25,134 nt of DNA from a virus (IMGVR_UViG_2778261505_000007:1-25134), one strand, 5' to 3'. Counted from the first letter of the stretch, positions 8,034-25,134 are shown. The notes: generated from the letters alone by a model not told the origin. Translations and numbers: made by a program.

Positions 8034-8038
8034 TACCA

Positions 8039-8058: not shown

Positions 8059-8070
8059 ACGCTCAAATAA

Positions 8071-8085: not shown

Positions 8086-8104
8086 TAAAATATTCTAAAC
8101 TCTA

Positions 8105-8147: not shown

Positions 8148-8150
8148 ATC

Positions 8151-8498: not shown

Positions 8499-8559
8499 AT
8501 CGACGATCTTTTTAGTTATCAATGTAATCAATAAGTTATGTGGATAAGCGAGGGTAAAG

Positions 8560-10444: not shown

Positions 10445-10445
10445 T

Positions 10446-10667
10446 ATGGCTAACTCATTACTTAAAACATGCAACAACTGGCAGATTCAGAGGGCGGAGA
10501 TTTTATCTCGCAATCCAGATATGGCAATGACAATTGATAACCTGGATACGCTAATTGAACGGACCGTGCGTTCTGCAATTGATATAGCACATCGAGTGGA
10601 TTGGGATTTCAGAGAAGCGGAGCGACTCGCTAAAGAGCAGGCGAAAGCAGCGGGAAAAGGAGAGTGA
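10446..10667 (+). CDS. Hypothetical protein (73 aa)
   Basis: ATG at 10446 with AGGAGAG Shine-Dalgarno; the ORF-track version starting at 10365 overlaps the previous gene. Confidence 0.45.
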   Translation: MANSLLKTCNNWQIQRAEILSRNPDMAMTIDNLDTLIERTVRSAIDIAHRVDWDFREAERLAKEQAKAAGKGE

Positions 10668-10668
10668 T

Positions 10669-11436
10669 ATGACCACTTTCACCGACAAAGAACTGATTAA
10701 AGAAATCAAAGAGCGTATCAGCAGCCTGGACGTTCGAGACAATATTGAACGCCGGGCTTATGAAATTGCACTGGCATCGCTGGAAGCAGATCCAGTTGCT
10801 TATATTTTCAAACATCCTGCCGGGAAATTATTCTGGGCTTTAACGGATGAAAGCAATAAAGAGCAACCGGACGTTATTCCTGTTTATGCTGACTCACCTG
10901 CGCCGGTTGTGCCGGATGAAATAGACGTAAACGATGTACCAAGGGCGGTGACATATTTCAAGACACACAGAGATTGTTACGCAGATGGCTGGAACGCCTG
11001 CCACGCTGCCATGCTTCAGGGTAGCCAACCTGTAAGCCAAACTTACAACTTGCCAGAATTAATCGAAGGCATGGAAGTTTCCATTGATGTAAGCACTTGT
11101 GATGCTGATTTAGGTAATCGCTATTTCGGCACCGTCACCGAGGCGTTAGAACTTGATACAGCCAAGAATGGTTACATCCTCCTGGTTCAGGACGCAGAGC
11201 CAAACTTCGATGTAAATGGCAACTCTCCGGTAACTCCGGATGGTTGGATAAGCTGTAGTGAGCGAATGCCGAACGAAGAAGATGTTTTGGTTTATTGCTC
11301 AGACACAAAAGAGCAGATGGTAGGGTTTCACAAAGGTAAAGGGTTATTTCAATTCTTTTACATGAATGGTGTTGAGGGGGTATGTGAGCCGTCACACTGG
11401 ATGCCGCTACCAGAGCCGCCGCAGGAGGTGAAGTGA
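10669..11436 (+). CDS. DUF551-like phage protein
   Basis: C-terminal region with the HWMPLPEPP signature of the DUF551 family. Confidence 0.6.
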   Translation: MTTFTDKELIKEIKERISSLDVRDNIERRAYEIALASLEADPVAYIFKHPAGKLFWALTDESNKEQPDVIPVYADSPAPVVPDEIDVNDVPRAVTYFKTHRDCYADGWNACHAAMLQGSQPVSQTYNLPELIEGMEVSIDVSTCDADLGNRYFGTVTEALELDTAKNGYILLVQDAEPNFDVNGNSPVTPDGWISCSERMPNEEDVLVYCSDTKEQMVGFHKGKGLFQFFYMNGVEGVCEPSHWMPLPEPPQEVK

Positions 11437-11786
11437 TGGACTATTCACAGTTAAGTGATTTTGAAATTAACAGAATGGTAGGAGACATAATTTTTAAAGG
11501 CCTTTGGGCGTGTAAACCGGAAACATCAGGGAATAACACCAACAAATGGTATTACGGAAATACTGATACAACTTTTGAGCCATTAAACCCTTTACCTGAC
11601 TACTGCAATAATCCATCGGATGCATGGCCTATTATTGTTGATAATAAAATCAGTCTAACCTGCCACCAATCTCGCGGTGAGTGGTCAGCTGTTTTTAATG
11701 CCGAGAACATTTGCTTTCATGCGAATAATCCACTCCGAGCCGCCATGATTGTATTTCTCATGATGCAGGAAAATCAGAATGGCTAA
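11436..11786 (+). CDS. NinX-like (DUF2591-like) protein
   Basis: N-terminus MDYSQLSDFEINRMV resembles the NinX family of lambdoid phages. AGGAGGTG Shine-Dalgarno; ATG overlaps the previous stop (TGATG). Confidence 0.55.
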   Translation: MDYSQLSDFEINRMVGDIIFKGLWACKPETSGNNTNKWYYGNTDTTFEPLNPLPDYCNNPSDAWPIIVDNKISLTCHQSRGEWSAVFNAENICFHANNPLRAAMIVFLMMQENQNG

Positions 11787-12117
11787 ATCAGCATCAGAGC
11801 GCAAAGCCGCTCAGAGAGCCAGACAAGCTGCATCTGGTGTGCGTAAGCTGGAGATTGTGCTTGATGCTCAGGAAATTGAAATGCTGGAGCGTAACTGTGC
11901 CACGCGTCGCCCCGGGCGTGCGCCTTACGAATTTGGGGAGTATATAGCGTTACTGATCCGCCAGGATGATGCACGCGTGCGCGGGCGTATAAAATCGATT
12001 AGCAGAAAACGTTGCGGTAAGTGCGGCGAGAAAGTTCCCGTTAATTCATGCCCGTGTAATGGTGACTCGCAATGCTGGGTGACTAAAGGCTGGCATGAAA
12101 CTAAATTAATAGTGTGA
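11779..12117 (+). CDS. Hypothetical basic protein with putative DNA-binding N-terminus and C-terminal Cys cluster
   Basis: 112-aa ORF; N-terminal basic/helical segment (SERKAAQRARQAASGVRKLEIVLDAQEIEMLER) and C-terminal CGKCGEK...CPCNGDSQC motif. Last gene before the terminator and the terminase genes. Confidence 0.45.
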   Translation: MAKSASERKAAQRARQAASGVRKLEIVLDAQEIEMLERNCATRRPGRAPYEFGEYIALLIRQDDARVRGRIKSISRKRCGKCGEKVPVNSCPCNGDSQCWVTKGWHETKLIV

Positions 12118-12166
12118 CATGTCACGAGTAGATTATGCATGATGAATTTGATGGGTTTTGAATACT

Positions 12167-12193
12167 GCCGCCAACTATGGCGGCTTTATTTTG
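12167..12193 (+). terminator. Rho-independent terminator upstream of the terminase genes
   Basis: Hairpin GCCGCC-AACTAT-GGCGGC followed by TTTATTTTG. Confidence 0.55.
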
Positions 12194-12203
12194 CATGGTA
12201 CTA

Positions 12204-12218
12204 TTACCACAACGGTAA
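12204..12218. promoter_or_regulatory. Operator-like palindrome (TTACC-ACAAC-GGTAA)
   Basis: Perfect site 18 bp upstream of the terminase small subunit ATG. Confidence 0.55.
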
Positions 12219-12221
12219 CAA

Positions 12222-12236
12222 TTACCAGGGTGGTTA
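12222..12236. promoter_or_regulatory. Operator-like palindrome (TTACC-AGGGT-GGTTA, one mismatch)
   Basis: Immediately adjacent second site, overlapping the terminase small subunit Shine-Dalgarno and start. Confidence 0.4.
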
Positions 12237-12832
12237 TGATGCCTGCTGAACCTAAAACCTATAAACGCAAATCAACGCAATTTAAGCCACTAACCGCAAT
12301 GCAGGAGGCTTATTGCCAGTCATACATCAAAACGCCTGAAAACCAGACTCAGGCAGCGATTAACGCAGGATTCTCCCCAAATACAGCGGCAGTTAAAGCC
12401 AGTGTCATGATGCGCGATGAACGCATTCAAAAACGGATTGCCGAGTTGATGGAGGAGCGCAACAAACGAATGCGCGTCAGTGCCGATTACGTTCTCATGC
12501 GCCTGGTGGAGATCGACCAGATGGACGTGATTGATATCCTCAACGACGATGGGAGCCTTAAGCCAATCCGCGAGTGGCCGAAAATCTGGCGCACTACGCT
12601 TAGTGGCTTTGATCTGTCATCGACCATCATGAACATGAACGAGGATTCGATAGAGACAATCCTCAAAAAAATTAAATGGCCTGACAAGGTGAAGAACCTC
12701 GAACTGATTGGTAAGCACGTCGACGTCAACGCATTCAAAGAACGCCTGGATGTTAATGTGAATGTGACAATTGCTGATCGCATAGCGGCAGCCAGGAAGC
12801 GACTCAAAGAACGTCAGGATGGTAATCAGTGA
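12236..12832 (+). CDS. Terminase small subunit
   Basis: Translation has the pattern typical of phage small terminases (LTAMQEAYCQSYIKTPENQTQAAINAGFSPNTAAVKASVMMRDERIQKRIAEL). True start is taken as ATG 12236/12239 because the ORF-track N-terminal extension runs through a terminator. Confidence 0.8.
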   Translation: MMPAEPKTYKRKSTQFKPLTAMQEAYCQSYIKTPENQTQAAINAGFSPNTAAVKASVMMRDERIQKRIAELMEERNKRMRVSADYVLMRLVEIDQMDVIDILNDDGSLKPIREWPKIWRTTLSGFDLSSTIMNMNEDSIETILKKIKWPDKVKNLELIGKHVDVNAFKERLDVNVNVTIADRIAAARKRLKERQDGNQ

Positions 12833-14298
12833 CAGATACAGCGTTATCTCCTGAAGAGCAGTTGATCGAGGATATTGCAGGGTTCACTCACGATCCGCTT
12901 GGCTATGCCCTCTATGCGTTCCCGTGGGGGGAAGAGGGGACTGAACTGGCACATGCTACCGGCCCACGTCAGTGGCAGGCTGATGCGTTCCGAGAGATAC
13001 GTGATCACCTGCAGAATCCAGAGACGCGCTATCAGCCGCTTATGCTGGCACGCGCTTCGGGTCACGGTATTGGTAAATCCGCATTCATCTCAATGCTGAT
13101 CAACTGGGGCATGTCCACTTGCGAGGATTGTAAGGTCGTGGTGACCGCCAACACCGACAACCAGCTACGAACGAAGACCTGGCCGGAAATTATCAAGTGG
13201 TCGAACCTTGCTATCACGAAAGACTGGTTTACCTGTACCGCTACCGCGATGTACAGCAATGACCCTGGGCACGACAAGCGGTGGCGAGCTGACGCAATCC
13301 CCTGGTCTGAGCACAACACTGAGGCATTCGCCGGACTACACAACGAGCGCAAACGCATCATCGTGGTATTCGACGAAGCATCCAACATTGCCGATCTGGT
13401 GTGGGAGGTAGCAGAGGGTGCGCTGACGGACGAAGACACTGAGATTATCTGGGTGGCATTCGGAAACCCTACACGTAACACCGGGCGTTTCCGCGAATGT
13501 TTCCGCAAATATAAACACCGCTGGAAAACTGCGCAGATTGACAGCCGGACGGTGGAAGGCACTAACAAACAGCAGTTGCAGAAATGGGTTGATGACTACG
13601 GGGAAGACAGCGACTTCGTTAAAATCCGTGTGCGCGGCATATTCCCTGATGCATCTGAATTGCAGTTTATCCCTACCGGTCTTACTGATGAGGCAATGAA
13701 ACGGGTGGTAACCGCTGCGCAGGTGGCGCATGCTCCGGTGATAATCGGTGTTGACCCGGCATATTCAGGCGTTGATGACGCGGTGATATACCTGCGGCAG
13801 GGGCTACACAGTAAGGTGCTGTGGACTGGCAACAAGACTACCGACGATCTGATTATGGCGAAGCGTATCGCTGACTTTGAAGACCAGTATCAGGCTGACG
13901 CGGTGTTCATCGACTTCGGTTACGGAACCGGTCTGAAGTCAATCGGTGACGGATGGGGTCGTACATGGCAACTTGTTCCGTTCGGTGGCGCGTCTACTGA
14001 CCCGCAGATGCTCAACAAGCGTGGGGAGATGTTCAATTCATGCAAGACATGGCTGAGGCTGGGCGGCATGCTGGATGACCAGGAAACAGCAGACGACCTG
14101 TCGGCGGCAGAGTACAAAGTTCGAGTGGACGGTAAAATCGTTATCGAACCGAAGGAAGATATCAAGGAGCGGCTTGGGCGTTCGCCGGGTAAAGGCGATG
14201 CGCTACTGCTGACGTTTGCGTTCCCGGTAGCCAAGAAAACTAATGACCCACGGCAGCAGCAGGGCAGGGCTATAACAGACTATGACCCATTTGAATGA
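12829..14298 (+). CDS. Terminase large subunit
   Basis: 489-aa protein with Walker A-like ATPase motif (ARASGHGIGKS), an acidic Walker B-like region (IIVVFDEAS) and a C-terminal nuclease-like region. GTG start overlaps the small subunit stop. Confidence 0.9.
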   Translation: MTDTALSPEEQLIEDIAGFTHDPLGYALYAFPWGEEGTELAHATGPRQWQADAFREIRDHLQNPETRYQPLMLARASGHGIGKSAFISMLINWGMSTCEDCKVVVTANTDNQLRTKTWPEIIKWSNLAITKDWFTCTATAMYSNDPGHDKRWRADAIPWSEHNTEAFAGLHNERKRIIVVFDEASNIADLVWEVAEGALTDEDTEIIWVAFGNPTRNTGRFRECFRKYKHRWKTAQIDSRTVEGTNKQQLQKWVDDYGEDSDFVKIRVRGIFPDASELQFIPTGLTDEAMKRVVTAAQVAHAPVIIGVDPAYSGVDDAVIYLRQGLHSKVLWTGNKTTDDLIMAKRIADFEDQYQADAVFIDFGYGTGLKSIGDGWGRTWQLVPFGGASTDPQMLNKRGEMFNSCKTWLRLGGMLDDQETADDLSAAEYKVRVDGKIVIEPKEDIKERLGRSPGKGDALLLTFAFPVAKKTNDPRQQQGRAITDYDPFE

Positions 14299-14301
14299 TT
14301 T

Positions 14302-15150
14302 TTACTTTTGTGTTTTTGATTTTCTTTGATGGGTGGAATTTAAACCACCATTTATATTTACTAGAGGATTATTCAATAATGTACTGATTTCTGGATTGTT
14401 AATTCCAGTAACGCCAAGTTTCTTTACGGACTCATTAAGGTCTTGTAATGATTTTAGACCTACAAACCCATTAGCAATTGTATTATTTGTTGCCAAAGGA
14501 ATGTTTTTCTTATAGGACTCATATTCGTTTTTTAAATTTTTGTGGGCTTTTTCTAGATTTTCTAGTTTAGATGTTGTTTCATGAATAACCTTAGATAATT
14601 CTAAAATACGAGCTTGTGCTGCGCGCAGTTCTGTCTCCCTCTCTTTCAATTCAGATGTGAGTTGTCCCATTCTGTCTTTTGAAAGAATTATTTCCTCTTT
14701 CATGTCTTGAATGTTTTTTTCAGCGCCTGTTTTTACTTTTTCGTAAGTAATGTCTTTTTTAGCCAGCAATCTCTGTAGCCGTGTTTCACGTTGTATTTTT
14801 CTTGCCTTCCGGTGATTTTCGATTGAGTCATTATTATCAAGAGGCTTTGCTTGCCATACGTTAATGATATTGTTTACCCATGGTAATAGGCAGCAGATAG
14901 TAATTACAGATAAGCATGGATAAAACATAACAGTTTTCCATGTGCTGTTATCTGAGATGTATGAAATTTTATCTATTATATTTGATTTGCTAAAAAATAG
15001 ATAAAGAAGTGATTTCCAGTTGAAGGCGCACCAGGACATAACAAAAGCACCTAGCACAGGGTTTTTAGCTCGATGCACGGCAGTATTGGCAGTAGATAAA
15101 AACAGCTCTTTGAACGATTCGAACATACTAATTACCTTAAAGTTTTTCAT
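14302..15150 (-). CDS. AT-rich gene: membrane-anchored coiled-coil protein of unknown function (about 282 aa)
   Basis: Opposite strand to all flanking late genes and visibly AT-rich. Two hydrophobic segments (PVLGAFVMSWCAFNWKSLLYLFF; TVMFYPCLSVITICCLLPWVNNIINVW) followed by a long charged heptad-like region. Preferred start ATG 15150 (AAGGT Shine-Dalgarno); the longer track ORF to 15222 would translate through a terminator hairpin. Confidence 0.6.
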   Translation of the reverse strand: MKNFKVISMFESFKELFLSTANTAVHRAKNPVLGAFVMSWCAFNWKSLLYLFFSKSNIIDKISYISDNSTWKTVMFYPCLSVITICCLLPWVNNIINVWQAKPLDNNDSIENHRKARKIQRETRLQRLLAKKDITYEKVKTGAEKNIQDMKEEIILSKDRMGQLTSELKERETELRAAQARILELSKVIHETTSKLENLEKAHKNLKNEYESYKKNIPLATNNTIANGFVGLKSLQDLNESVKKLGVTGINNPEISTLLNNPLVNINGGLNSTHQRKSKTQK

Positions 15151-15154
15151 GATT

Positions 15155-15169
15155 ATACCTTTAAGGTAA
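15155..15169. promoter_or_regulatory. Operator-like palindrome (ATACC-TTTAA-GGTAA, one mismatch)
   Basis: Overlaps the Shine-Dalgarno/promoter region of the AT-rich gene. A TTACC half-site also at 15132-15136. Confidence 0.4.
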
Positions 15170-15184
15170 TTTGTGGTCATCAGG

Positions 15185-15209
15185 CAAAAAAATGCCCGGC
15201 GAACCGGGC
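15185..15209 (-). terminator. Rho-independent terminator downstream of the tRNA
   Basis: On the minus strand, hairpin GCCCGG-TTCG-CCGGGC followed by ATTTTTTT. Confidence 0.55.
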
Positions 15210-15372
15210 GAACTGGAAGCAATGAGTTATGCCTTCCGTGGCTGTACGGGTTTACAGCATGAAGTCATCGCAATGGCGTCCTGCTGTAAAAAGGGCGGTG
15301 ATAGTCCTTCAAGGGAAACCATCACCGCCAAGCCCCTGGAACTTCTGGCATCACGGTCCTTAGGCGTGATTC

Positions 15373-15449
15373 TGGCGCGGCATGCAGGATTCGAACCTGC
15401 GACCAACCGCTTAGAAGGCGGTTGCTCTGTCCAACTGAGCTAATGCCAC
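15373..15449 (-). tRNA. tRNA-Arg (anticodon UCU)
   Basis: Minus-strand 77-nt sequence GTGGCATTAGCTCAGTTGGACAGAGCAACCGCCTTCTAAGCGGTTGGTCGCAGGTTCGAATCCTGCATGCCGCGCCA folds by hand into a cloverleaf: 7-bp acceptor stem, GTTCGAATCC T-arm, anticodon loop CTTCTAA, encoded CCA. Related to but distinct from the host argU sequence as I recall it. Confidence 0.9.
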
Positions 15450-15771
15450 AACGCTGAGAGCACTTAGCCTGTTAAGGCACCACACTTTGTCGCGGCTCCA
15501 TAAATGCTCTCATCGTTGCACCCTCGTCTCTTCCGAGGTGTCACACCGAATCGCCGGGATGGTGAATCCCCGTGCGCGGAATAAAACCGCTCGACTTGCA
15601 CATTCCGGCTACCTGGTTCGTTTGCCCGAGCAAGGGAGGGTGCCCCTTAAACGTATCCAGACCGCTATCGGCGCATGTGCCATACACCGTACTGCTCAAA
15701 ATAAAAGCTCACCCCACCTGTTCAATTTAACGACAAGCCAGTCAGGTTAATAACCGGAATGAACTCTTTGC

Positions 15772-15786
15772 TTACCTGAAAGGTAA
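15772..15786. promoter_or_regulatory. Operator-like palindrome (TTACC-TGAAA-GGTAA)
   Basis: Perfect site about 90 bp upstream of the first virion gene. Confidence 0.55.
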
Positions 15787-15876
15787 TAATTAGTGCGTTA
15801 AATGTCAAGTATCTACGATAAATAAATCACATGTGGTTAAATTGGTAATAATTTAATTGCGTACGGAGTCATTGAT

Positions 15877-16083
15877 ATGTGCATGGGTAGCTCACCATCA
15901 GTGCCTGCAACACCAGAAGTTCAGGCAGCACCACAGGAGCAGGATGCCGCCGTTGTTGATGCCCGCGACGAAGAAACTCGTCGCCGTCGCGCTGCTGCTG
16001 GTCGTAGTTCTACGCTGCTTACCGGTTCTCAGGGCGACACATCAACCGCTAATACCAGCGGTAAAACGCTGCTTGGTCAGTAA
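15877..16083 (+). CDS. Small virion protein, possibly T7 gp6.7-like
   Basis: 68-aa ORF with GGAG Shine-Dalgarno, directly upstream of the portal. Begins MC... and is Ala/Arg/Thr-rich; similarity to T7 gp6.7 is tentative and recalled from memory. Confidence 0.4.
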   Translation: MCMGSSPSVPATPEVQAAPQEQDAAVVDARDEETRRRRAAAGRSSTLLTGSQGDTSTANTSGKTLLGQ

Positions 16084-16097
16084 CCGGAGTCATTGAA

Positions 16098-17777
16098 ATG
16101 GCGGAAACAACTAAAGAGCGATTGAACAAACAGTTCGCACAACTTGAAAGCGAGCGTCAGTCGTTCGAGCCGCACTGGCGCGAGTTGAGTGATTACATCA
16201 ACCCGCGTGGTTCCCGCTTTCTGACTTCTGAGGTCAACCGTAACGATCGACGGAATACACGCATTATTGATTCGACCGGGACTATGGCGGCGCGCACTCT
16301 CGCCAGCGGCATGATGTCAGGCATCACAAGCCCCGCGCGTCCGTGGTTTCGCCTGGCTACGCCAGATCCTGAAATGATGGATTATGGCCCTGTTAAGTTG
16401 TGGCTTGAGGCGGTGCAGAACCGCATGAACGATATGTTCAATAAGTCGAATCTCTACCAGTCTCTTCCGCAGTTATACGGAAGCCTCGGCACATACAGCA
16501 CTGGTGCAATGGCGGTGCTGGAGGATGACGAGGACATCATTCGCACAATGCCATTCCCGATAGGCAGTTACTACCTGGCTAACTCACCTCGTGGCAGTGT
16601 GGACACCTGTTTTCGCAAGTTCTCTATGACTGTTCGTCAGCTTGTTCGGGAGTTCGGGCTAAATAACGTCAGCGAATCCGTAAAAAGCATGTGGGAAAGC
16701 GGCACCTACGAGAAGTGGATTGAAGTGATGCATTCGGTTTACCCGAACATTGACCGCGATACATCGAAGCTGGATAGCAAGAACAAGCCATTCAAATCGG
16801 TTTATTACGAGGTTGGTGGCGATAACGACAAGTTGTTGCGTGAGTCCGGATTCGATGAGTTTCCAATTATGGCTCCGCGCTGGGAAGTTAACGGCGAAGA
16901 TGTTTATGGATCATCATGCCCGGGTATGCTGGCGCTTGGACCTGTTAAGGCATTGCAGCTTCTCCAGAAGCGCAAGTCGCAGTTGATTGATAAAGCCACC
17001 AATCCGCCGATGGTTGCTCCGACTTCCCTCAAGAATCAGCGCGCCTCCCTTCTTCCTGGCGACATCACGTATATCGATCAGATTACTGGTCAGGATGGTT
17101 TCAGGCCTGCTTATCTGGTTAACCCCAGTACAGCAGATCTGGTAGCAGACATTCAGGACACCCGCCAAATCATTAACAGCGCCTACTTTGTCGATCTGTT
17201 CATGATGTTGCAGAACATCAATACCCGCTCGATGCCTGTTGAAGCGGTGATCGAAATGAAAGAAGAAAAACTTCTGATGTTGGGGCCGGTTCTGGAGCGT
17301 CTGAACGACGAATGTCTTAATCCTCTCATTGACCGCGCTTTCTCGATGATGGTGCGTAAAAACATGCTGCCGCCACCGCCTGACGCGATGGAAGGTATGC
17401 CCCTGAAGGTCGAATACATTTCTGTCATGGCTCAGGCGCAGAAGTCTATCGGCCTGTCCAGTCTGGCGTCCACGGTTAACTTCATTGGTCAACTTGCGCA
17501 AGCGAAACCAGAAGCTCTCGACAAACTCAACGTTGATCAGGCGATCGATGCATTCGCTGATATGTCCGGAGTGTCTCCAACCGTCATTGTTCCGCAGGAA
17601 CAGGTTGAGCAGGCTCGCCAGCAACGGGCACAGCAACAACAGCAGCAACAAATGATGGCGATGGGGATGGCGGCGGCACAGGGTGCCAAGACGCTAAGCG
17701 AAGCTAAAACTTCGGATCCGAGTGTTTTGTCAGCTATGGCGAATGCAGTTAGTGGTCAGGGTGGGCAATCACAATGA
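16098..17777 (+). CDS. Portal (head-to-tail connector) protein, T7 gp8-like
   Basis: 559-aa protein. The C-terminal Gln/Ala/Met-rich tail (QQQQQQQMMAMGMAAAQGAKT) mirrors the T7 gp8 C-terminus, and size and position match. Confidence 0.85.
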   Translation: MAETTKERLNKQFAQLESERQSFEPHWRELSDYINPRGSRFLTSEVNRNDRRNTRIIDSTGTMAARTLASGMMSGITSPARPWFRLATPDPEMMDYGPVKLWLEAVQNRMNDMFNKSNLYQSLPQLYGSLGTYSTGAMAVLEDDEDIIRTMPFPIGSYYLANSPRGSVDTCFRKFSMTVRQLVREFGLNNVSESVKSMWESGTYEKWIEVMHSVYPNIDRDTSKLDSKNKPFKSVYYEVGGDNDKLLRESGFDEFPIMAPRWEVNGEDVYGSSCPGMLALGPVKALQLLQKRKSQLIDKATNPPMVAPTSLKNQRASLLPGDITYIDQITGQDGFRPAYLVNPSTADLVADIQDTRQIINSAYFVDLFMMLQNINTRSMPVEAVIEMKEEKLLMLGPVLERLNDECLNPLIDRAFSMMVRKNMLPPPPDAMEGMPLKVEYISVMAQAQKSIGLSSLASTVNFIGQLAQAKPEALDKLNVDQAIDAFADMSGVSPTVIVPQEQVEQARQQRAQQQQQQQMMAMGMAAAQGAKTLSEAKTSDPSVLSAMANAVSGQGGQSQ

Positions 17778-18070
17778 CAGATTACGAAGATGATCAACTG
17801 AAAGAAGAAAACGCCAGTAAGCAACGTGACATGGCACAGCGTGAAATTGATGACATTCGCTTTGTCATGAGCAGTGAACAGGGGCGTCGCGTTGTCTGGT
17901 CTGTGCTGGAGAAAGGCCGGGTGTTTTCCGCTATCTCACCGATGGACGCTATGGCAATGGCATTTAATGAGGGGCAACGCAATCTGGCGCTGGAACTGTT
18001 TCAGCGCGTTATGGCGCATTGCCCTGAACAGTATTTGAAGATGGCCAAAGAGGCCAGTGAACAGGAGTGA
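17774..18070 (+). CDS. Hypothetical protein (98 aa)
   Basis: ORF with ATG overlapping the portal stop (ATGA). No recognisable motif. Confidence 0.5.
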   Translation: MTDYEDDQLKEENASKQRDMAQREIDDIRFVMSSEQGRRVVWSVLEKGRVFSAISPMDAMAMAFNEGQRNLALELFQRVMAHCPEQYLKMAKEASEQE

Positions 18071-18072
18071 TC

Positions 18073-18768
18073 ATGAATTTATTTGAGCGTTTGCTGTATC
18101 GCCGTCTTTGCAATGAGCAACCAGTCGATGGTGGAGCAGCTCCGGCTGCGTCAGAACCGTCAGCGCCTGCAGGTGATAACCCTGCTCCAGTTGGTGATCC
18201 ATCACAACAGGAAGGTGATAAGCCACAACCTGTTGCTGATGGCGATAAACCTGCTGATGACAAAAAGCCTGAAAACGATAAGCAGGATGAAAAAAAGGAC
18301 GGCGATAAACCAGAGGGTGCGCCTGAGAAGTACGAGTTTCAGGCTGCCGAAGGCGTAGAGCTGGATACAGAAGCGTTGAAGGAGTTCGAGCCGGTGGCGC
18401 GAGAACTTAACCTGACCAACGAGCAAGCGCAAAAGCTGGTTGATGCTTATCCGAAGATTCTGGCAGGTGTGCAGCAGCGCCAGGCAGAAGCCTGGCAGAA
18501 AACAACCGAGCAGTGGGCTGCTGATGTAAAAGCTGACAAAGAAATCGGTGGCGACAAGTTGATTTCTAACCTTAGCGCCGCACAGCGTGCGCTTGACCAG
18601 TTCGGGACACCTGAACTCAAAGAATATCTGAACACCACCGGGCTGGGTAATCACCCTGATCTGGTCAAAACGTTCGTGAAAATCGGAAAGGCGATGTCTG
18701 AAGATAGCATGGTCACCGGTGGTAATGAAGGCCAGCGTAGTGCGGCCGAAGTGCTCTATGGCAAATAA
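18073..18768 (+). CDS. Putative scaffolding protein
   Basis: Highly charged, Pro/Asp/Lys-rich N-terminus and helical C-terminal region, between portal and capsid genes. AGGAG Shine-Dalgarno before ATG 18073. Confidence 0.6.
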   Translation: MNLFERLLYRRLCNEQPVDGGAAPAASEPSAPAGDNPAPVGDPSQQEGDKPQPVADGDKPADDKKPENDKQDEKKDGDKPEGAPEKYEFQAAEGVELDTEALKEFEPVARELNLTNEQAQKLVDAYPKILAGVQQRQAEAWQKTTEQWAADVKADKEIGGDKLISNLSAAQRALDQFGTPELKEYLNTTGLGNHPDLVKTFVKIGKAMSEDSMVTGGNEGQRSAAEVLYGK

Positions 18769-18782
18769 GAGAGGAAATGACA

Positions 18783-19769
18783 ATGGCTGTTAAAGGCTTA
18801 ACTGCGCTAACGCTGGCTGACTGGGGTAAGCGCGTCGATCCAAACGGGAAAGTCGATAAGATTATCGAGCTTCTCGGTCAAACTAACCCGATCCTTCAGG
18901 ATATGCCTTTTGTCGAAGGGAACCTTCCTACCGGACACCGAACCACCATTCGTTCTGGTTTACCTTCAGCTACCTGGCGTTTGCTGAACTATGGCGTACA
19001 GCCAAGCAAATCAACCACAGTGCAGGTAACCGATTCCGTTGGCATGCTGGAAACCTATGCTGAAGTCGATAAGTCACTGGCTGATCTGAACGGCAATACC
19101 GCCGAATTCCGCCTGTCTGAAGACCGCGCATTTATTGAAGCGATGAATCAGCAGATGGCGCAGACGCTGTTTTATGGTGATTCCAGCGTTAACCCTCAGC
19201 AGTTTATGGGACTGTCCTCCCGCTATTCCAGCCTGTCTGCAGGTAATGCTCAGAACATCATTGATGCTGGTGGCACGGGTACAGATAACACCTCAATCTG
19301 GTTAGTGGTGTGGGGCGAAAACACCGTGCATGGCATCTTCCCGAAAGGGCAGAAGGCTGGCATTCAGATGGAAGATAAAGGCCAGGTGACACTGGAAGAT
19401 GCTAATGGCGGCAAGTACGAAGGCTACCGTACCCATTACAAATGGGACAACGGACTTGCTCTGCGTGACTGGCGTTATGTTGTTCGCATTGCAAACATCG
19501 ATGTCAGCAATCTTTCAGAACCTTCCTCTGCCGCAAATATTGCGAAGTTGATGGTTAAAGCACTGCATCGCATTCCAAATCGTGGCATGGGTCGCCCGGT
19601 GTTCTACATGAACCGCACTGTAGGCCAGGCTCTTGATCTGCAATCTCTGGAGAAAACATCTCTGGCGATCAGCGTAAAAGAGACAGAAGGCGAGTGGTGG
19701 ACTTCATTCCGTGGTGTACCAATCCGTGAAACTGATGCGCTTCTGGAAACAGAAGCCCGCGTGGTGTAA
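18783..19769 (+). CDS. Major capsid protein
   Basis: About 330-aa protein after the scaffold gene, with strong Shine-Dalgarno (AGAGAGGA), followed by a hairpin. Assigned by synteny and size, not by homology. Start 18777 or 18783. Confidence 0.7.
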   Translation: MAVKGLTALTLADWGKRVDPNGKVDKIIELLGQTNPILQDMPFVEGNLPTGHRTTIRSGLPSATWRLLNYGVQPSKSTTVQVTDSVGMLETYAEVDKSLADLNGNTAEFRLSEDRAFIEAMNQQMAQTLFYGDSSVNPQQFMGLSSRYSSLSAGNAQNIIDAGGTGTDNTSIWLVVWGENTVHGIFPKGQKAGIQMEDKGQVTLEDANGGKYEGYRTHYKWDNGLALRDWRYVVRIANIDVSNLSEPSSAANIAKLMVKALHRIPNRGMGRPVFYMNRTVGQALDLQSLEKTSLAISVKETEGEWWTSFRGVPIRETDALLETEARVV

Positions 19770-19820
19770 CGCCTGTTATTAACCTGTGGGTCGTAACAGA
19801 CCCACTAATGGAGAAAGAAG

Positions 19821-20258
19821 ATGATCACCGACAAACTGTTGATGTTCTCCGAAGCTCAGGCGGTTACGAATACCGCGGCTTCTACTGACGTAATCGATCT
19901 CGGTCCAATTGACGGAAAACGTCGTGATATTGGCGTTGGTTACCCGCTTGAGTTTTGGGTGCTGGTTAACGAAGCCGCCACGGCAAGTGGTGAGGCAACT
20001 GTAAACATCCAGTTGCAGACGAGTGAGAATAACAGCTCTTGGACCACTATTTATGATAGTGGTGCGTTGGCAAAGGCCACCCTGACAGCAGGTAAGCGAG
20101 TTGTTTCTGCAAAGGTGCCAGCCGGTGTTCAGCGATATCTGCGTGTTAACTACTCCGTCGCAACTGGCCCACTAACGGCCGGCAAATTCACTGCGGGTAT
20201 CAGTCTGGATGTTGATGCCAATACGCCGTATCCGATCCGCTCAAAAGTAACTGGTTAA
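19821..20258 (+). CDS. Hypothetical virion-module protein (145 aa)
   Basis: ORF with GGAGAAAGA Shine-Dalgarno directly after the capsid gene. Possibly a decoration or head-associated protein. Confidence 0.5.
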   Translation: MITDKLLMFSEAQAVTNTAASTDVIDLGPIDGKRRDIGVGYPLEFWVLVNEAATASGEATVNIQLQTSENNSSWTTIYDSGALAKATLTAGKRVVSAKVPAGVQRYLRVNYSVATGPLTAGKFTAGISLDVDANTPYPIRSKVTG

Positions 20259-20268
20259 GGTGATATCG

Positions 20269-20604
20269 ATGTCAGGTGAGAAACCAAGATACCGCGTTCT
20301 GCGCCTCTCTCATATCCATAACACTCTGTGGCCGGAGGGGGCAGAAATCGAATACGAAGGTGAGCCTGGTAGCGCACTGGAACCTGTTAACGATGCAGCC
20401 AGACAGGCAAAAGCAAAAGTTGCAGGAAAGGTGTCAATGGCAGCAACCAGCACCAAAATCATCAACGATGTGTCAGATGATGGTGAACTGGATAAGCTCC
20501 GTGAAGAGTACGAATTGCTCTTTAACGAGAAGCCACACCATAACGCTAAAGCCGAAACGCTCCGCGAGAAGATCGCAGATAAGCGTAAAGAACTGGGCGT
20601 GTAA
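20269..20604 (+). CDS. Hypothetical protein (about 111 aa)
   Basis: ORF followed by a terminator. Start taken as ATG 20269 (AAGGTGA Shine-Dalgarno); the track start is GTG 20260. Confidence 0.5.
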   Translation: MSGEKPRYRVLRLSHIHNTLWPEGAEIEYEGEPGSALEPVNDAARQAKAKVAGKVSMAATSTKIINDVSDDGELDKLREEYELLFNEKPHHNAKAETLREKIADKRKELGV

Positions 20605-20620
20605 GCCTCGCGAATCAGAC

Positions 20621-20644
20621 AAGGGGCTTCGGCCCCTTTATTGC
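20621..20644 (+). terminator. Rho-independent terminator within the virion module
   Basis: Hairpin AAGGGGC-TTCG-GCCCCTT followed by TATT. Position is analogous to the post-capsid terminator of T7-like phages. Confidence 0.65.
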
Positions 20645-20654
20645 AGGAGTGTAT

Positions 20655-20978
20655 ATGGAACTCGTAAACCTTAAAACCGGCACTGACAGCTACCAGGATG
20701 AGAGCGGAGAAACCAGAACTCGCGATGAATACCCGTGGGGGCTGTGCATCACTCTTAATAACGACACATTGAATAAGCTGAAGGCGCAACCTCAGGGCGT
20801 CGGAACAGAAGTGATGATAACGGCAAAGGCTGTTATTCGAGGCCTGTCTGCCAGAGAAACTGACGATGGTGTTAATCGCAGCGCCGATCTGCAGATCACT
20901 GATATGGCGATCGCTCCTGTTTCCGGGGATGTAGAAAAATCAGCGGCTGAAACTCTGTACGGCAATGGGGGGGAGTAA
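20655..20978 (+). CDS. Hypothetical protein (about 107 aa)
   Basis: ORF with AGGAG Shine-Dalgarno 5 nt before ATG 20655. Confidence 0.5.
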   Translation: MELVNLKTGTDSYQDESGETRTRDEYPWGLCITLNNDTLNKLKAQPQGVGTEVMITAKAVIRGLSARETDDGVNRSADLQITDMAIAPVSGDVEKSAAETLYGNGGE

Positions 20979-21583
20979 TGGCCTCTGTAGTAGAGATCTG
21001 CAATCGTGCGTTGTCCAATATTGGCAACAGCCGCAGCATTAACAGCCTGACGGAAGCCAGCAAGGAAGCGGGGGAATGTTCGCTGCACTTTGAGGCCTGC
21101 CGTGATGCTGTTCTTTCTGATTTTGACTGGAACTTTGCTACCAAACGCGTGGCGCTTGCAGATACGAGCAATCCACCGCCTGACTGGGAATACGCGTACC
21201 AGTACCCGTCAGATTGTCTGCGCATTACTGAAATTATGCTTCCTGGTGTACGCAATCCAACAGCAGCAATGCGCGTTCAGTACGAAGTTGGTGCAGACAC
21301 CAACGGAACAGGAAAGTTGATCTACACAGACCAGCCTCAGGCATGGCTCAAGTATGTCTCTCGCGTTACAGATGTGAACATGTTTGATGCCATTTTTATG
21401 GAGGCGTTGGCCTGGCGTCTTGCGGCAGCCATTAACATGGCGCTGACTGGGAATGCAGACCTCGGTACGTTTGCCCTCAATATGTACAATCGCGTGATTC
21501 TTAGTGCTGGCTCGCATAGCCAGAATGAATCACAGGAACCACAGCCACCGGTTGACGAGTTTACCATTGCGAGGTTGTCCTGA
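20978..21583 (+). CDS. Tail tubular protein A-like (T7 gp11-like adaptor)
   Basis: 201 aa, close to T7 gp11 length. N-terminal pattern (ALSNIGNS.SINSLTE....DW.F) resembles gp11. Position before an about 820-aa protein matches the gp11-gp12 pair. Confidence 0.55.
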   Translation: MASVVEICNRALSNIGNSRSINSLTEASKEAGECSLHFEACRDAVLSDFDWNFATKRVALADTSNPPPDWEYAYQYPSDCLRITEIMLPGVRNPTAAMRVQYEVGADTNGTGKLIYTDQPQAWLKYVSRVTDVNMFDAIFMEALAWRLAAAINMALTGNADLGTFALNMYNRVILSAGSHSQNESQEPQPPVDEFTIARLS

Positions 21584-24054
21584 TGGCTATCAGTTGGATC
21601 CAGCCCAGCTTTGCCGGTGGTGAGATTGGACCGTCGTTGTACGGTCGTATCGACATGGCGAAGTACCAGGTGGCATTGCGCAAGTGCGATAACTTTATCG
21701 TGCGGCAGTATGGCGGCGTTGAGAATCGACCTGGTACGCGTTTTGTCGGTGCCGCCAAATACCCAAATCGGAAATGCCGCCTGATCCCGTTCCAGTTCTC
21801 GACGGTTCAGACCTATGCTCTGGAGTTCGGACACCAGTACATGCGCGTTATCAAAGATGGTGCGTTGGTGCTGAACAGCAGCAATGTTATTTATGAAATT
21901 GCCACGCCATATACTGAAGCTGATCTGTTCCGAATTAAATTCACGCAAAGCGCCGACGTGCTTACGCTGGTTCACCCGGCATACCCGCCGAAAGAGTTGC
22001 GCCGATATGCTCATGACAACTGGCAACTGGTTGATGTGGTAACGAAGAACGGGCCATTTGAAGATATCAATATTGACGAGTCAGTGACGGTTTATGCCAG
22101 CGCCAGCACCGGGACAATTACGTTAACGGCAAGCGCCTCTATTTTTGGCGCGGAGCAGGTAGGCAAATTGTTCTATCTGGAACAGCCTGCAGTGGATTCA
22201 GTGCCGGTATGGGAAACCAGTAAGAGTACGTCGATTGGCGATATTCGCCGTGCAGACAGTAACTACTATCGCGCCGTTACAGCAGGCAAAACAGGTACTT
22301 TGCGCCCTTCGCATACAGAAGGCACATCATGGGATGGCTGGGGCGGATCCGGTGATGATGATACTGGCATTGAGTGGGAATATCTGCACAGTGGTTTTGG
22401 CATTGCCCGTATCACTGCTGCAAATGGAACTACTGCAACTGCCGAGGTGATTTCCTATATCCCTTCGCAGGTAGTTGGCGAGGATAATGCCAGCTATAAA
22501 TGGGCTAAATATGCCTGGAACAGTGTTAATGGTTATCCTGGCACTGTTGTTTATTATCAACAACGTCTTTACTTCGCCGCATCGACTGCGTTCCCTCAGA
22601 CTATCTGGGCCAGCCGTACCGGGGATTATAAGGATTTTGGCAAAAGCAATCCTACGCAGGATGACGACAGAATTATCTACACCTATGCCGGGCGTCAGGT
22701 TAATGAGATCCGCCACCTGATTGATGTCGGTTCGCTGGTGGCACTGACTTCCGGAGGTGAGTACGTCATCACCGGCGACCAGAACAAAGTGTTAACCCCA
22801 TCATCATTTGCATTCAGCTCTCAGGGATCAAATGGCTCTAGCAATGTCCCACCAATTGCCGTGGCGAATATTGCTCTGTTCGTCCAGGAGAAAGGCAGTG
22901 TTGTCCGTGATCTGGCCTACTCATTCGATGTTGACGGCTATCAGGGGAACGACCTGACCATCCTTGCCAATCATCTTTTTCAGAAGCACAGCATTGTTGA
23001 CTGGTGCTTCTCTATTGTCCCTTACTCCAGCGCCTTCTGCATTCGTGATGACGGTAAATTACTGGTGATGACCTATTTGCGTGATCAGCAGGTTTTTGCA
23101 TGGGCACCACAATCCAGTACCGGAAAATATGAAAGCACATGCAGTATCAGCGAAGGAAATGAAGATGCGGTGTATTTCGTCGTTAACCGAACCGTTAACG
23201 GGCAAACAGTGAGATACATCGAGCGACTGTCCAGCCGTTTATTTACCAGCGATGAAGATGCTTTCTTTGTTGATTCTGGCCTTAGCTATGATGGAAGAAA
23301 TACGTCTGACAGAACGATGACCATCACTGGTGGTTCTGGCGAATGGGATTACCGCGCGGAATATACAATCAGTATTTCTGGTGGTGCGTACTTCACCAGT
23401 AGTGATGTCGGTGCGCAACTACAGTTCCCTTATACCGGAACTGATCCTGATACTGGCGATGAAGTGTCAAAAGAATTACGTTGCGACATTATTTCTGTAA
23501 CCAGCAACACCGCTGTAGTGGTTCGTGCTAACAGGAACGTCCCGCCATCCCTCAGGAATGTGGCCACCACGAACTGGCAGATGGCGCGCCGGGCATTTGG
23601 CGGCTTGTCTCATCTTGAAGGTCAGACCGTAAACATCCTCTCTGATGCGAACGTGGAACCACAGAAAGTAGTTTCCGGAGGTGCCGTCACGCTGGAATCA
23701 CCGGGGGCTGTAGTGCACATCGGCCTGCCAATAACTGCTGAATTCGAAACACTGGATATCAACATTAACGGACAGGAAACGCTGCTGGACAAAAAACAGG
23801 TGATCCCATCCGTTACTCTGGTTGTGAATGCCAGCCGCGGCATCTGGGCGACTACGCCCGGCGGTAAATGGTACGAATATCCACAGCGTGAATTCGAGTT
23901 CTACGATGATCCTGTTGATGACGCTACCGGAAAAGTAGAAGTGAAACTGGACAGTAACTGGGGCAAAAACGGACGTGTAAGAATCCGTCAGCTTGACCCG
24001 TTGCCGCTGTCTGTTCTTGCCGTTATTCCTCGTCTTACTGTTGGGGGATTCTGA
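21583..24054 (+). CDS. Tail tubular protein B-like (T7 gp12-like nozzle)
   Basis: 823-aa protein directly after the gp11-like gene, with ATG overlapping the previous stop. Assigned by size and synteny. Confidence 0.6.
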   Translation: MAISWIQPSFAGGEIGPSLYGRIDMAKYQVALRKCDNFIVRQYGGVENRPGTRFVGAAKYPNRKCRLIPFQFSTVQTYALEFGHQYMRVIKDGALVLNSSNVIYEIATPYTEADLFRIKFTQSADVLTLVHPAYPPKELRRYAHDNWQLVDVVTKNGPFEDINIDESVTVYASASTGTITLTASASIFGAEQVGKLFYLEQPAVDSVPVWETSKSTSIGDIRRADSNYYRAVTAGKTGTLRPSHTEGTSWDGWGGSGDDDTGIEWEYLHSGFGIARITAANGTTATAEVISYIPSQVVGEDNASYKWAKYAWNSVNGYPGTVVYYQQRLYFAASTAFPQTIWASRTGDYKDFGKSNPTQDDDRIIYTYAGRQVNEIRHLIDVGSLVALTSGGEYVITGDQNKVLTPSSFAFSSQGSNGSSNVPPIAVANIALFVQEKGSVVRDLAYSFDVDGYQGNDLTILANHLFQKHSIVDWCFSIVPYSSAFCIRDDGKLLVMTYLRDQQVFAWAPQSSTGKYESTCSISEGNEDAVYFVVNRTVNGQTVRYIERLSSRLFTSDEDAFFVDSGLSYDGRNTSDRTMTITGGSGEWDYRAEYTISISGGAYFTSSDVGAQLQFPYTGTDPDTGDEVSKELRCDIISVTSNTAVVVRANRNVPPSLRNVATTNWQMARRAFGGLSHLEGQTVNILSDANVEPQKVVSGGAVTLESPGAVVHIGLPITAEFETLDININGQETLLDKKQVIPSVTLVVNASRGIWATTPGGKWYEYPQREFEFYDDPVDDATGKVEVKLDSNWGKNGRVRIRQLDPLPLSVLAVIPRLTVGGF

Positions 24055-24518
24055 TGATCGATGTTCAAATTATTCCCGCCACCGAAGAGCATCTTCAGAT
24101 GATTTTGCCGGATGTTCGTCAGGCTGATATTGACGAACTGTATGCGGTATCGCTGATGACTACCGAAGATGCGCTGCGTGTTGGTCTTCGCACTGCGACT
24201 ATGGCCTGGTCAGGATTTGCGAACGGAGAACTGGTAACCATGTTTGGCGTATCTCCGGCGTCAATGATCGGTGGCAATGGTACGCCCTGGCTGGTAGGAA
24301 CCAGCCGTATTGAAAAATATCAGAAGACATTTCTGCGCCACTGCCGCCCTGTATTGCAGCAGATGCTGGCAGTTTATCCGCGCCTGGAAAACTACGTCGA
24401 CGAGCGAAACCATGTTGCCAAAGCATGGCTGCACTGGCTTGGATTCAGGCTTGAAGAAGCCGCGCCTTATGGTGCTCTTGGTCTTAATTTCCACAGATTT
24501 CACATGGAGAGAAAATAA
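24054..24518 (+). CDS. Putative internal virion protein (T7 gp13 position)
   Basis: 154-aa ORF with GGGGGA Shine-Dalgarno. Assigned by synteny only. Confidence 0.45.
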   Translation: MIDVQIIPATEEHLQMILPDVRQADIDELYAVSLMTTEDALRVGLRTATMAWSGFANGELVTMFGVSPASMIGGNGTPWLVGTSRIEKYQKTFLRHCRPVLQQMLAVYPRLENYVDERNHVAKAWLHWLGFRLEEAAPYGALGLNFHRFHMERK

Positions 24519-25063
24519 TGTGCGATCCGGTTATTGCTGGTGGCGCAATGCTCGCCATGAGTGGCATTCAGGCATACACCCAGTACCAACAGGGAAAGTA
24601 TGCCTCGAAGGTTGCAGAAGCGAACGCAGATATAGCCACAGCTCAGGCAAATGATGCAATAAACAGAGGTAACGCTGAAGCTGAGCAACGGCGCAGAGAG
24701 AACCGACAGCGGCTTGGTACACAGGCGGCGACAATGGGGGCTACCGGCGCTGATTTATCTACAGGTAACGCGCTGGATATATTTGGCGACACTGCCCAGT
24801 TTGGCGCTCTTGATTCTCTGACGACGGTGAATAACGCGCAACGCGAGGCTTACGGTTATCAGGTTCAGGCTGCCAACTATAAAGCAGAAGCCAGTTCAGC
24901 CCGTAAACAGGGGAATGTGGGAGCAGCAACAACATTGCTCACTGCGCCTCTGAAGGCATACGGTGCGTACCAGATGTTTGGTGGGACGTGGAGTCCGTTT
25001 ACTCAAAGCACCCCTGCGCCAATCGGAGCAGCAGCAGGAACCAGATTACCCGGAGGATTATAA
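24518..25063 (+). CDS. Putative internal virion protein (T7 gp14 position)
   Basis: 181-aa Ala/Gly/Gln-rich protein with hydrophobic N-terminus. Assigned by synteny only. Confidence 0.45.
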   Translation: MCDPVIAGGAMLAMSGIQAYTQYQQGKYASKVAEANADIATAQANDAINRGNAEAEQRRRENRQRLGTQAATMGATGADLSTGNALDIFGDTAQFGALDSLTTVNNAQREAYGYQVQAANYKAEASSARKQGNVGAATTLLTAPLKAYGAYQMFGGTWSPFTQSTPAPIGAAAGTRLPGGL

Positions 25064-25134
25064 TGCCAGTCGTACCAACAGTATCCGGACGTCAGGTTGA
25101 GAGCCGTGGAGTTCAGTCAGCAGGCTTGCAGACG
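25063..25134 (+). CDS. Start of next virion gene (T7 gp15 position), truncated by window end
   Basis: ATG at 25063 overlapping the previous stop (TAATG); reading frame MPVVPTVSGRQVESRGVQSAGLQT stays open to the window end. Confidence 0.4.
   Translation, partial: MPVVPTVSGRQVESRGVQSAGLQT

Follow-up and report, generated by a model that had tools for sequence, protein, structure and literature searches.

Salmonella phage epsilon15 is the type member and a cryo-EM model system, and BPP-1 and Carin1, close relatives of the parts of the phage described here, have structures at near-atomic resolution. The published attachment site of phages phiV10 and ZX5 is guaA, and ZX5 particles viewed by TEM have a head of 60 nm and a tail of 15 nm (PMC9782041). 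In 2016, epsilon15 gp12, gp13, gp14 and gp17 were related to the tube and internal proteins of T7 by HMM–HMM matching (PMC4819975). Deep kinship of this tail with T7 is already published, and according to Hardies et al. the podovirus tail groups concerned are very deeply related to one another (PMC4819975).

The DNA analysed here, a viral stretch of 25,134 nucleotides referred to as the window, was compared with these systems at the level of identity, gene order and homology of each part. With a probability of roughly 95%, it represents the left two-thirds of a phiV10-type Uetakevirus prophage of E. coli, running from the integrase to internal virion protein B. This is a temperate, short-tailed phage type related to epsilon15, ordinary and already described. 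Positions 15800-25134 share 98.3-98.6% nucleotide identity over 100% of their length with phiV10, phiv142-3, PAS61, ZX5, HEMP4 and TL-2011b (phiV10 NC_007804, 98.3% at 100% coverage; ZX5, 98.4%). The window covers 25 kb of roughly 39-40 kb, a partial sequence from which whole-genome species-level identity is not computable. All 15 virion and packaging proteins compared have 97-100% amino acid identity to phiV10, and genes could be mapped one to one onto epsilon15 gp1-gp15 and phiV10 p01-p18, with all 12 ORFs of the 15877-25134 region colinear with epsilon15 gp3-gp14. The early half (1-15800) is a mosaic variant rather than a phiV10 clone, because any one of the same sequenced phages covers only 59-80% of it, at about 97-98% identity (phiV10, 59% aligned at 96.8%). 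Prophages with at least 80% of the window were found in 322 of 5,426 complete E. coli genomes (approximately 6%). The window begins at the integrase start codon, so that the attachment junction falls outside it, and adjacency to guaA was read from an E. coli prophage 98.6% identical to the window, in which the integrase gene lies directly downstream of guaA.

The initial annotation had described the early genes as lambdoid, which is borne out by gene order, by Pfam content (lambda P, NinX, Ea22-like and CI-type genes), by a Cro-like gene and by iterons. As in lambdoid phages, the integrase is followed by recombination genes, repressor/cro, an initiator with iterons, P and nin-type genes, with the lambda P, NinX and Ea22 families all represented. 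From the integrase through to the internal virion proteins, the genes follow the same order as in phiV10 and its relatives. The features of this half and of the adjoining terminase region are as follows.

1-1251, plus strand: tyrosine integrase (Pfam Arm-DNA-bind_3 + Phage_integrase), the first prophage gene
1446-2108, minus: MT-A70 DNA adenine methyltransferase (Pfam; PADLOC MTase_II 5e-79)
2796-3677, minus: RecT-family single-strand annealing protein, not Bet (PF03837, 1.3e-31)
3674-4495, minus: PD-(D/E)XK nuclease, RecE-like (DUF3799; PF12684, 5.8e-22)
5100-5684, minus: CI-type HTH repressor (HTH_3; position matches phiV10 p40)
5839-6069, plus: Cro-like small regulator, divergent from the repressor (phrog_35 transcriptional repressor, 8.7e-13)
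6436-7251, plus: replication initiator at the lambda-O position (Pfam HTH_36 + DnaT)
7233-8033, plus: lambda P family helicase loader (PF06992, 1.5e-56)
9794-10444, plus: Ead/Ea22-like protein (PF13935, 8e-24)
11433-11786, plus: NinX-like protein (PF10765, 5.2e-17)
12158-12832, plus: small terminase subunit (PF03592; 99.6% identical to phiV10 p01)
12829-14298, plus: large terminase subunit (phrog_2; 93% identical to epsilon15 gp2)
14302-15222, minus: cargo ORF replacing phiV10 p03 (GC 0.39; phrog_4780)
15373-15449, minus: tRNA-Arg, anticodon UCU (ARAGORN; annotated in the E. coli prophage too)

Two of the early assignments stood only in part. Where Bet and RecE had been proposed, the RecE-like nuclease is present but the annealing protein is RecT, giving a RecT/RecE-like pair instead of the Bet/Exo of lambdoid phages; the two are separate ORFs in the window, whereas one fused gene is annotated in phiV10. 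Similarly, an initiator does occupy the O position and carries six internal iterons (18-24 nt, at 6690-6842), but its Pfam domains are HTH_36 and DnaT rather than those of the lambda O family. The nin-like region, at roughly 8.5-12 kb, is mosaic relative to phiV10. The sole product encoded in the interval from NinX to the small terminase is a 112-aa phrog_536 'transcriptional regulator', and neither a Q-type late antiterminator nor a lysis cassette was found between the nin genes and the terminase; in the phiV10 annotation the lysis genes sit after the tail fibre.

Of the whole window, only the cargo slot that separates terminase from portal (14229-15650) has not already been described. Identity to phiV10 breaks at 14229-15185, over the cargo ORF, which encodes 306 aa from its first start and 282 aa in the NCBI annotation. 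No convincing match to this protein came from PADLOC, NCBIfam or Pfam; SMC, LmuB and JetC proteins resembled it only weakly, in a coiled-coil-type manner. It might be a new kind of superinfection-exclusion or anti-phage gene, carried by the prophage in place of phiV10 p03, a suggestion that we consider unlikely. As a separate observation, the ORF that the phiV10 RefSeq record calls across the tRNA-Arg gene appears to be spurious.

For the right-hand part of the window, a T7-like virion module had been proposed, and its ORFs were confirmed in the positions and order given for them.

15877-16083, plus: 68-aa protein, epsilon15 gp3 homologue (88% identical; phrog_831)
16098-17777, plus: portal, same family as T7 gp8 (PF12236, 623 bits; PDB 8ck0 portal 1.9e-178)
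17774-18070, plus: Bbp19-like small protein, 98 aa (PF25181)
18067-18768, plus: 233-aa probable scaffolding protein, labelled 'peptidase/endoprotease' in databases
18777-19769, plus: major capsid protein, epsilon15 gp7/BPP-1 type (PF20911; the annotated phiV10 start maps to 18783)
19821-20258, plus: Bbp16-family capsid cement protein, 145 aa (PF21190, 5.9e-49)
20260-20604, plus: small head-module protein, epsilon15 gp9 homologue, 114 aa (40% identical; phrog_590)
20621-20639, plus: GC-rich hairpin with a UUCG loop, terminator-like, at the position of the annotated epsilon15 terminator
20649-20978, plus: capsid staple protein, epsilon15 gp10 family, 109 aa (PF21628, 1.2e-51)
20978-21583, plus: tail adaptor (tail tubular protein A), 201 aa, same fold as T7 gp11 (AlphaFold model pLDDT 86)
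21583-24054, plus: tail nozzle (tail tubular protein B), 823 aa, distant T7 gp12 homologue (PDB 8ck1_A 'Tail Nozzle' 2.9e-217)
24054-24518, plus: internal virion protein A, 154 aa, T7 gp13 homologue (hhalign 97.3%, E 2.2e-11; phrog_308)
24518-25063, plus: internal virion (core) protein B by its NCBI name, 181 aa, T7 gp14 family (PF24072, 31.5 bits; cut-off 27)
25063-25134, plus: first 24 codons of a large internal virion protein cut by the window end (100% identical to phiV10 p18 over 24 aa; corresponds to epsilon15 gp15)

The T7-like reading holds for the portal, tail and internal-protein set only: portal, adaptor, nozzle and the first two internal proteins are distant homologues of T7 gp8, gp11, gp12, gp13 and gp14 in the same order. 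It took profiles and folds to see this, because pairwise BLASTP and phmmer gave no meaningful match to T7 for any of the window's virion proteins. The gp8-like portal can be upheld by PF12236, which scores 379 bits on T7 gp8 itself, and by hhalign (95.6%, E 1.3e-8); the Q/A/M-rich C-terminus noted for it is real. For the gp11-like adaptor hhalign was weak (E 0.02), so that the link was drawn from the predicted structure, in which Foldseek matched the Carin1 connector (TM 0.84) and T7 gp11 (7box_N, E 3.6e-6, TM 0.58). The gp12-like nozzle matched the T7 gp12 family over residues 292-569 (hhalign 76%, E 2.3e-5; controls below 1%), and its profile matched a T7-like 'nozzle gp13' chain (23sh_T, E 2.7e-5) in a search of PDB sequences in which no chain named as T7 gp12 was among the matches listed. 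Diversity for this profile was taken from a 50%-clustered protein library; when the 823-aa protein was used to look for related loci, every copy retrieved was at least 99% identical, of no use for a profile, and word-indexed searches with the 823-aa and 233-aa proteins gave only proteins at least 80-82% identical among the matches listed. Adaptor and nozzle both fall short of the T7 Pfam models PF17212 and PF25675. The genes in the gp13 and gp14 positions are likewise as predicted, the latter by its PF24072 (T7_gp14) match, with a weak profile–profile comparison (E 0.005).

The head is where the proposed T7 likeness fails. The capsid, which had been singled out with the portal and the 823-aa protein for comparison with T7, belongs to PF20911 and not to the T7-type PF21703, and had no profile match to gp10A (hhalign E 0.08); its PDB matches are 3j4u (BPP-1, 9.5e-129) and 3j40 (epsilon15, 2e-85). 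Three extra small genes without T7 counterparts lie between capsid and adaptor, two of them encoding the cement and staple proteins. The supposed kinship of the 68-aa protein with gp6.7 found no support, with no Pfam family and membership in phrog_831. A terminator had been placed after the capsid gene, but the hairpin there (19786-19805) has no U-tract and was not picked up by a promoter/terminator scan that stayed at background level; the hairpin at 20621-20639 is the more terminator-like.

The widely propagated 'peptidase/endoprotease' name of the 233-aa protein is without support, and correcting it is a useful housekeeping outcome. No protease family was matched in Pfam or NCBIfam, and no invariant catalytic-type residue was found among 10 diverse members. 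The AlphaFold model, of low confidence (pLDDT 47), has a disordered N-terminus and a helical remainder. Since protease features are absent, and on the strength of this low-confidence model, the protein is probably a scaffold, which is more likely than a peptidase. Its best T7 match was gp9, at a non-significant hhalign E of 0.046, and a literature search for the epsilon15 scaffolding protein and PDB code 8CK1 returned nothing relevant.

The initial annotation had further read the terminase, which does lie upstream of the portal, as the mark of a hybrid layout. A recent recombinant, in which a lambda-type phage was joined to a true T7-type (Autographiviridae) virion module, would agree with the portal-to-internal-protein order, which parallels T7, and with the five distant T7 homologues. 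Pairwise searches found no T7 protein, however, and capsid and scaffold fall outside the T7 Pfam families; no single-subunit RNA polymerase occurs among the window's proteins (Pfam) or is annotated in the complete phiV10 genome. The order terminase, portal, scaffold, capsid, tube A, tube B, internal proteins is instead conserved in a very large podophage group, being seen in epsilon15, BPP-1, Pseudomonas AF, Pelagibacter Greip, Carin1 and others, among them distant relatives, both lytic and temperate, in Bordetella, Pseudomonas, Pelagibacter, Cobetia, Burkholderia, Vibrio and Xanthomonas. With the great depth of the tail-group relationships (PMC4819975) also against it, a recent lambda x T7 hybrid is highly improbable and was rejected as already refuted in practice. 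Terminase before portal is normal in epsilon15/BPP-1-type podophages, and there is no element-specific junction.

Among enteric bacteria the other common type of short-tailed prophage is P22-like, and kinship with it was even less credible. A P22-like phage would also be temperate and short-tailed with lambda-style early genes and NinX (a P22-named family), and the epsilon15 annotation ties the large terminase to Sf6 gp2. Against this, PF20911 was the only Pfam match of the capsid, the P22 coat family not being matched; the adaptor model aligned with T7-type adaptors at E 1e-6 to 1e-5 but with P22 gp4 chains only at E 0.4-0.75; and the nucleotide matches are Uetakevirus, not P22-like phages. 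The P22-like identity was rejected on these three grounds. It is unlikely, though less remote than either of these, that the phage is of the phiV10 type but that this copy is defective or cryptic rather than an inducible prophage. Only 25 kb is visible, and the sequence stops ahead of the genes for the large internal proteins, the tail fibre, O-antigen modification and lysis, which puts the completeness and activity of this copy outside its view, and IS elements or pseudogenes occur in the early region of some related E. coli copies. Every window ORF with a phiV10 counterpart is nevertheless full length and 97-100% identical to that of a plaque-forming phage, and no frameshifts were seen in the structural genes.

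Read as a phiV10-type prophage, the element would be kept inserted at the 3' end of guaA by its P4-type tyrosine integrase, with the choice between lysogeny and lysis set by the CI-type repressor and the divergent Cro-like gene. After induction, the initiator may bind its own internal iterons and the lambda-P-type loader recruit the host helicase. Small and large terminase would package DNA into a procapsid built from the T7-gp8-family portal, the probable 233-aa scaffold and an HK97-fold capsid protein, the shell then being stabilised by cement and staple. A twelve-subunit adaptor and a six-subunit nozzle would form the short tail, and the gp13-like, gp14-like and larger proteins encoded downstream would be packed in the head and, once ejected, would span the cell envelope. 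We infer subunit numbers, assembly pathway and ejection mechanism from the protein families and from published work on epsilon15, T7, BPP-1 and ZX5. The short-tailed virion predicted initially agrees with the 15-nm tail seen in ZX5 (PMC9782041). Overall, the interpretation made from raw sequence was partly supported and largely right. Discovery value is small for a phage type sequenced many times and carried by about 6% of complete E. coli genomes.

Compared with epsilon15, the window has 80-93% protein identity in its portal, adaptor, nozzle and terminase, whereas the capsid shell cassette (18732-20973) is diverged, without nucleotide similarity (capsid 43%, cement 36% and staple 43% identical), and the tRNA-Arg segment is absent from epsilon15. 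The BPP-1 capsid is closer to that of the window than is the epsilon15 capsid. BPP-1 (Rauchvirus), Carin1, Pseudomonas AF, Pelagibacter Greip and BcepC6B share the series portal, Bbp19, 'protease', capsid, Bbp16 cement, adaptor, nozzle and internal proteins, but in BPP-1 and the wider group protein identity is 25-50% and hosts, early regions and lifestyles differ. T7 shares the gp8, gp11, gp12, gp13 and gp14 homologues in order, followed by large internal proteins. It differs in its capsid (PF21703) and scaffold (PF05396) families, the 233-aa protein having no Pfam family; in lacking the cement and staple proteins; in carrying its terminase at the right genome end; and in being strictly lytic, whereas the window encodes an integrase and repressor. 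The virion genes of the window are unrelated to those of lambda, and lambda-style control genes and a tail distantly related to that of T7 are found together in one temperate E. coli phage.

The phage genus to which this element belongs is known, common, and structurally characterised, and the element is a routine member. Positions 15800-25134 match Escherichia phages phiv142-3, vB_EcoP_PAS61, vB_EcoP_ZX5, HEMP4, phiV10, and TL-2011b at 98.3-98.6% identity over 100% of this stretch, and Salmonella phage epsilon15 at ~75% identity; phiV10 and epsilon15 are assigned to the genus Uetakevirus in the NCBI taxonomy. Positions 1-15800 match the same Escherichia phages at ~97-98% identity, but the coverage by any single phage is only 59-80%, and parts also match Stx-converting and Salmonella phages, a patchiness that is typical of the mosaic genomes of temperate enteric phages. 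Copies spanning 80% or more of the window were found in 322 of 5,426 complete E. coli genomes. In one genome with such a copy, the element lies directly after guaA with the integrase first, and guaA is the published attachment site of phiV10 and ZX5 (PMC9782041).

The ORF map places genes of both orientations in an early region from 1 to ~12.1 kb, followed by a long rightward gene block from 12158 to the end of the window. The features upstream of the portal gene are as follows.

Early region: integrase and MT-A70 methylase
Early region: RecT-family recombinase (not Bet) and PD-(D/E)XK RecE-like nuclease
Early region: HTH repressor and, divergent from it, a Cro-like gene
Early region: initiator in the place of lambda O, carrying HTH_36 and DnaT domains and not of the lambda O family
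6690-6842: six iterons of 18-24 nt each, inside the initiator gene
Early region: lambda P family protein, Ea22-like protein, and NinX
12158-14298: small and large terminase genes, upstream of the portal
14302-15222, minus strand: ORF of 282-306 aa, GC 0.39, phage protein family profile phrog_4780
15373-15449, minus strand: tRNA-Arg (UCU anticodon), after the terminase and ahead of the portal

The early genes are for the most part those first proposed. Their lambdoid character holds for the CI/Cro-type pair, the iterons, lambda P, NinX, and the Ea22-like protein, but not for the recombinase, which is RecT instead of Bet, or for the initiator domains. The RecT and RecE-like nuclease genes (2796-4495, minus strand) are two ORFs with a 4-nt overlap, whereas the phiV10 record annotates one 1761-bp RecE-RecT fusion gene. 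NCBI's pipeline annotates the tRNA-Arg in an E. coli prophage, and the SPN9TCW annotation has it as well; at the same spot the phiV10 RefSeq record carries a plus-strand "hypothetical protein," p04, which is probably a spurious ORF over the tRNA gene. The search with the early half also matched 64 Synechococcus phage records, because the tRNA-Arg of the window is ~90% similar to that of S-RIM2.

The initial annotation read the late genes as a T7-like virion module joined to this early region in a hybrid layout. Pairwise BLASTP and phmmer searches returned no similarity between any window protein and any T7 protein. Family, profile, and fold comparisons divide the window proteins into two groups, one related to T7 and one not. 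The first group comprises the following.

16098-17777: portal, in the same Pfam family as T7 gp8 (PF12236, 623 versus 379 bits; hhalign 95.6%, E 1.3e-8)
20978-21583: 201-aa adaptor, matching gp11 weakly by hhalign (E 0.02), yet with gp11 as its top T7 match
21583-24054: 823-aa nozzle, whose 46-sequence profile matches the gp12 family at 76%, E 2.3e-5 (window residues 292-569 versus T7 307-600)
24054-24518: 154-aa protein, matching gp13 (hhalign 97.3%, E 2.2e-11)
24518-25063: 181-aa protein, above the curated cut-off of PF24072 (T7_gp14)

The nozzle is a close homologue of the solved "tail nozzle" of Carin1 (8ck1_A, E 2.9e-217), and six non-cognate T7 proteins used as controls for its profile all scored <1% probability. 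The aligned stretch includes the central domain (T7 354-556) reported as conserved by Hardies et al. (PMC4819975). For the adaptor, Foldseek comparison of an AlphaFold model (pLDDT 86) with T7 gp11 gave E 3.6e-6 and TM 0.58; the top 29 matches were without exception phage tail adaptors, and short-tailed phages supplied nearly all of them, with the Carin1 connector at TM 0.84 and P22 gp4 at an E of only ~0.4. In Vibrio phage QH (6001-8232), the adaptor homologue makes up the N-terminal region of a 743-aa "tail tubular protein"; the adaptor appears to be fused to extra domains in VP2/VP5-type Vibrio phages.

The second group includes the capsid protein (18777-19769), which belongs to PF20911 (epsilon15 gp7), not to PF21703 as in T7, and has no profile match to T7 gp10A; the T7 scaffold family was not found among the window proteins. 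Three small genes between capsid and adaptor, encoding a Bbp16-family cement protein, a 114-aa protein, and a gp10-family staple, are without T7 counterpart, and no link could be detected between the 68-aa protein (15877-16083) and gp6.7, which it had been likened to. The Q/A/M-rich C terminus described for the portal was confirmed. A hairpin does follow the capsid gene, where a terminator had been placed, but it is without a U-tract; a hairpin at 20621-20639, the site of an annotated terminator in epsilon15, is more terminator-like.

The 233-aa protein (18067-18768) is named "peptidase," "endoprotease," or "protease" in databases, at times capsid "assembly" or "stabilization" protein, and the peptidase/endoprotease label has spread across thousands of enterobacterial genomes. 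A protease assignment finds no family, motif, or fold support: searches of Pfam and NCBIfam put the protein in no protease family, it matches no solved relative, its listed homologues carry no precomputed Pfam domains, and ten aligned members spanning eight host genera share, beyond the start Met, no invariant residues other than one Pro, one Ala, one Trp, and one Gly. Its N-terminal ~90 residues are variable, of low complexity, and rich in P, D, E, and K; in a low-confidence AlphaFold model (pLDDT 47) residues 15-100 are disordered and the remainder is nearly all helix. Among T7 proteins it matches the scaffold gp9 best, though not significantly (E 0.046). Its location between portal and capsid, its composition, and the predicted helices fit the scaffold proposed initially, and we infer that it is probably a scaffolding protein. 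The 517-position profile phrog_30010 matches this protein with its positions 23-192 and the middle of the nozzle with its positions 188-461, which suggests that a chimeric or mis-assembled ORF went into its construction.

The layout is not a lambda-T7 hybrid. The succession of terminase, small protein, portal, Bbp19-like protein, "protease/assembly" protein, capsid, (cement), adaptor, nozzle, internal proteins A and B, and larger ones recurs in Bordetella BPP-1, Pseudomonas AF, Pelagibacter Greip, Cobetia Carin1, Burkholderia BcepC6B, and Vibrio MZH0603, and in the fetched stretch of Xanthomonas Olaya, which had no terminase. Because the order recurs in this way and the nozzle family numbers 18,301 representative clusters (E ≤ 0.001, 50%-clustered protein library), the layout is the long-established standard of a very large podophage group. 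Limnohabitans phage DC33 (PQ492659) has an epsilon15/BPP-1-type capsid-adaptor-nozzle module under an Inoviridae (filamentous ssDNA phage) taxonomy line, apparently a database misclassification. That the tail and internal proteins of this group are deeply related to those of T7 is already published: the homologues named include epsilon15 gp12 and gp17, together with those of internal virion proteins A and B, which are called "very standard" and lie in syntenic position, and the epsilon15 terminase and capsid were reported to group with siphovirus proteins (PMC4819975).

The initial observation is real, and in outline its interpretation was right about lambda-style control genes, a terminase upstream of the portal, a T7-related tail and ejection apparatus, and a short tail, seen directly in ZX5 (60-nm head, 15-nm tail; PMC9782041). 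It took a family layout for a hybrid and overstated the likeness to T7: capsid and scaffold differ, the annotation of the complete phiV10 genome includes no RNA polymerase, and the phage, unlike T7, is temperate.

Some mosaicism is real. Every structural-block ORF corresponds one-to-one to epsilon15 gp3-gp14, plus the first 24 codons of gp15, and is 97-100% identical to its phiV10 counterpart. Against phiV10, similarity breaks only once in the late region, at 14229-15185, where the low-GC reverse ORF replaces p03; its only resemblances are weak coiled-coil-type matches (SMC, LmuB, JetC), and its place between terminase and portal has the look of a cargo slot. Against epsilon15, nucleotide similarity is lost over 18732-20973, which spans the capsid and three small head genes, whereas the flanking portal and tail genes are 80-88% identical. 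This capsid-shell cassette (capsid, cement, 114-aa protein, and staple) has, on sequence comparison, evidently been swapped relative to epsilon15, and its capsid is nearer to that of BPP-1 (3j4u, E 9.5e-129) than to that of epsilon15 (3j40, E 2e-85).
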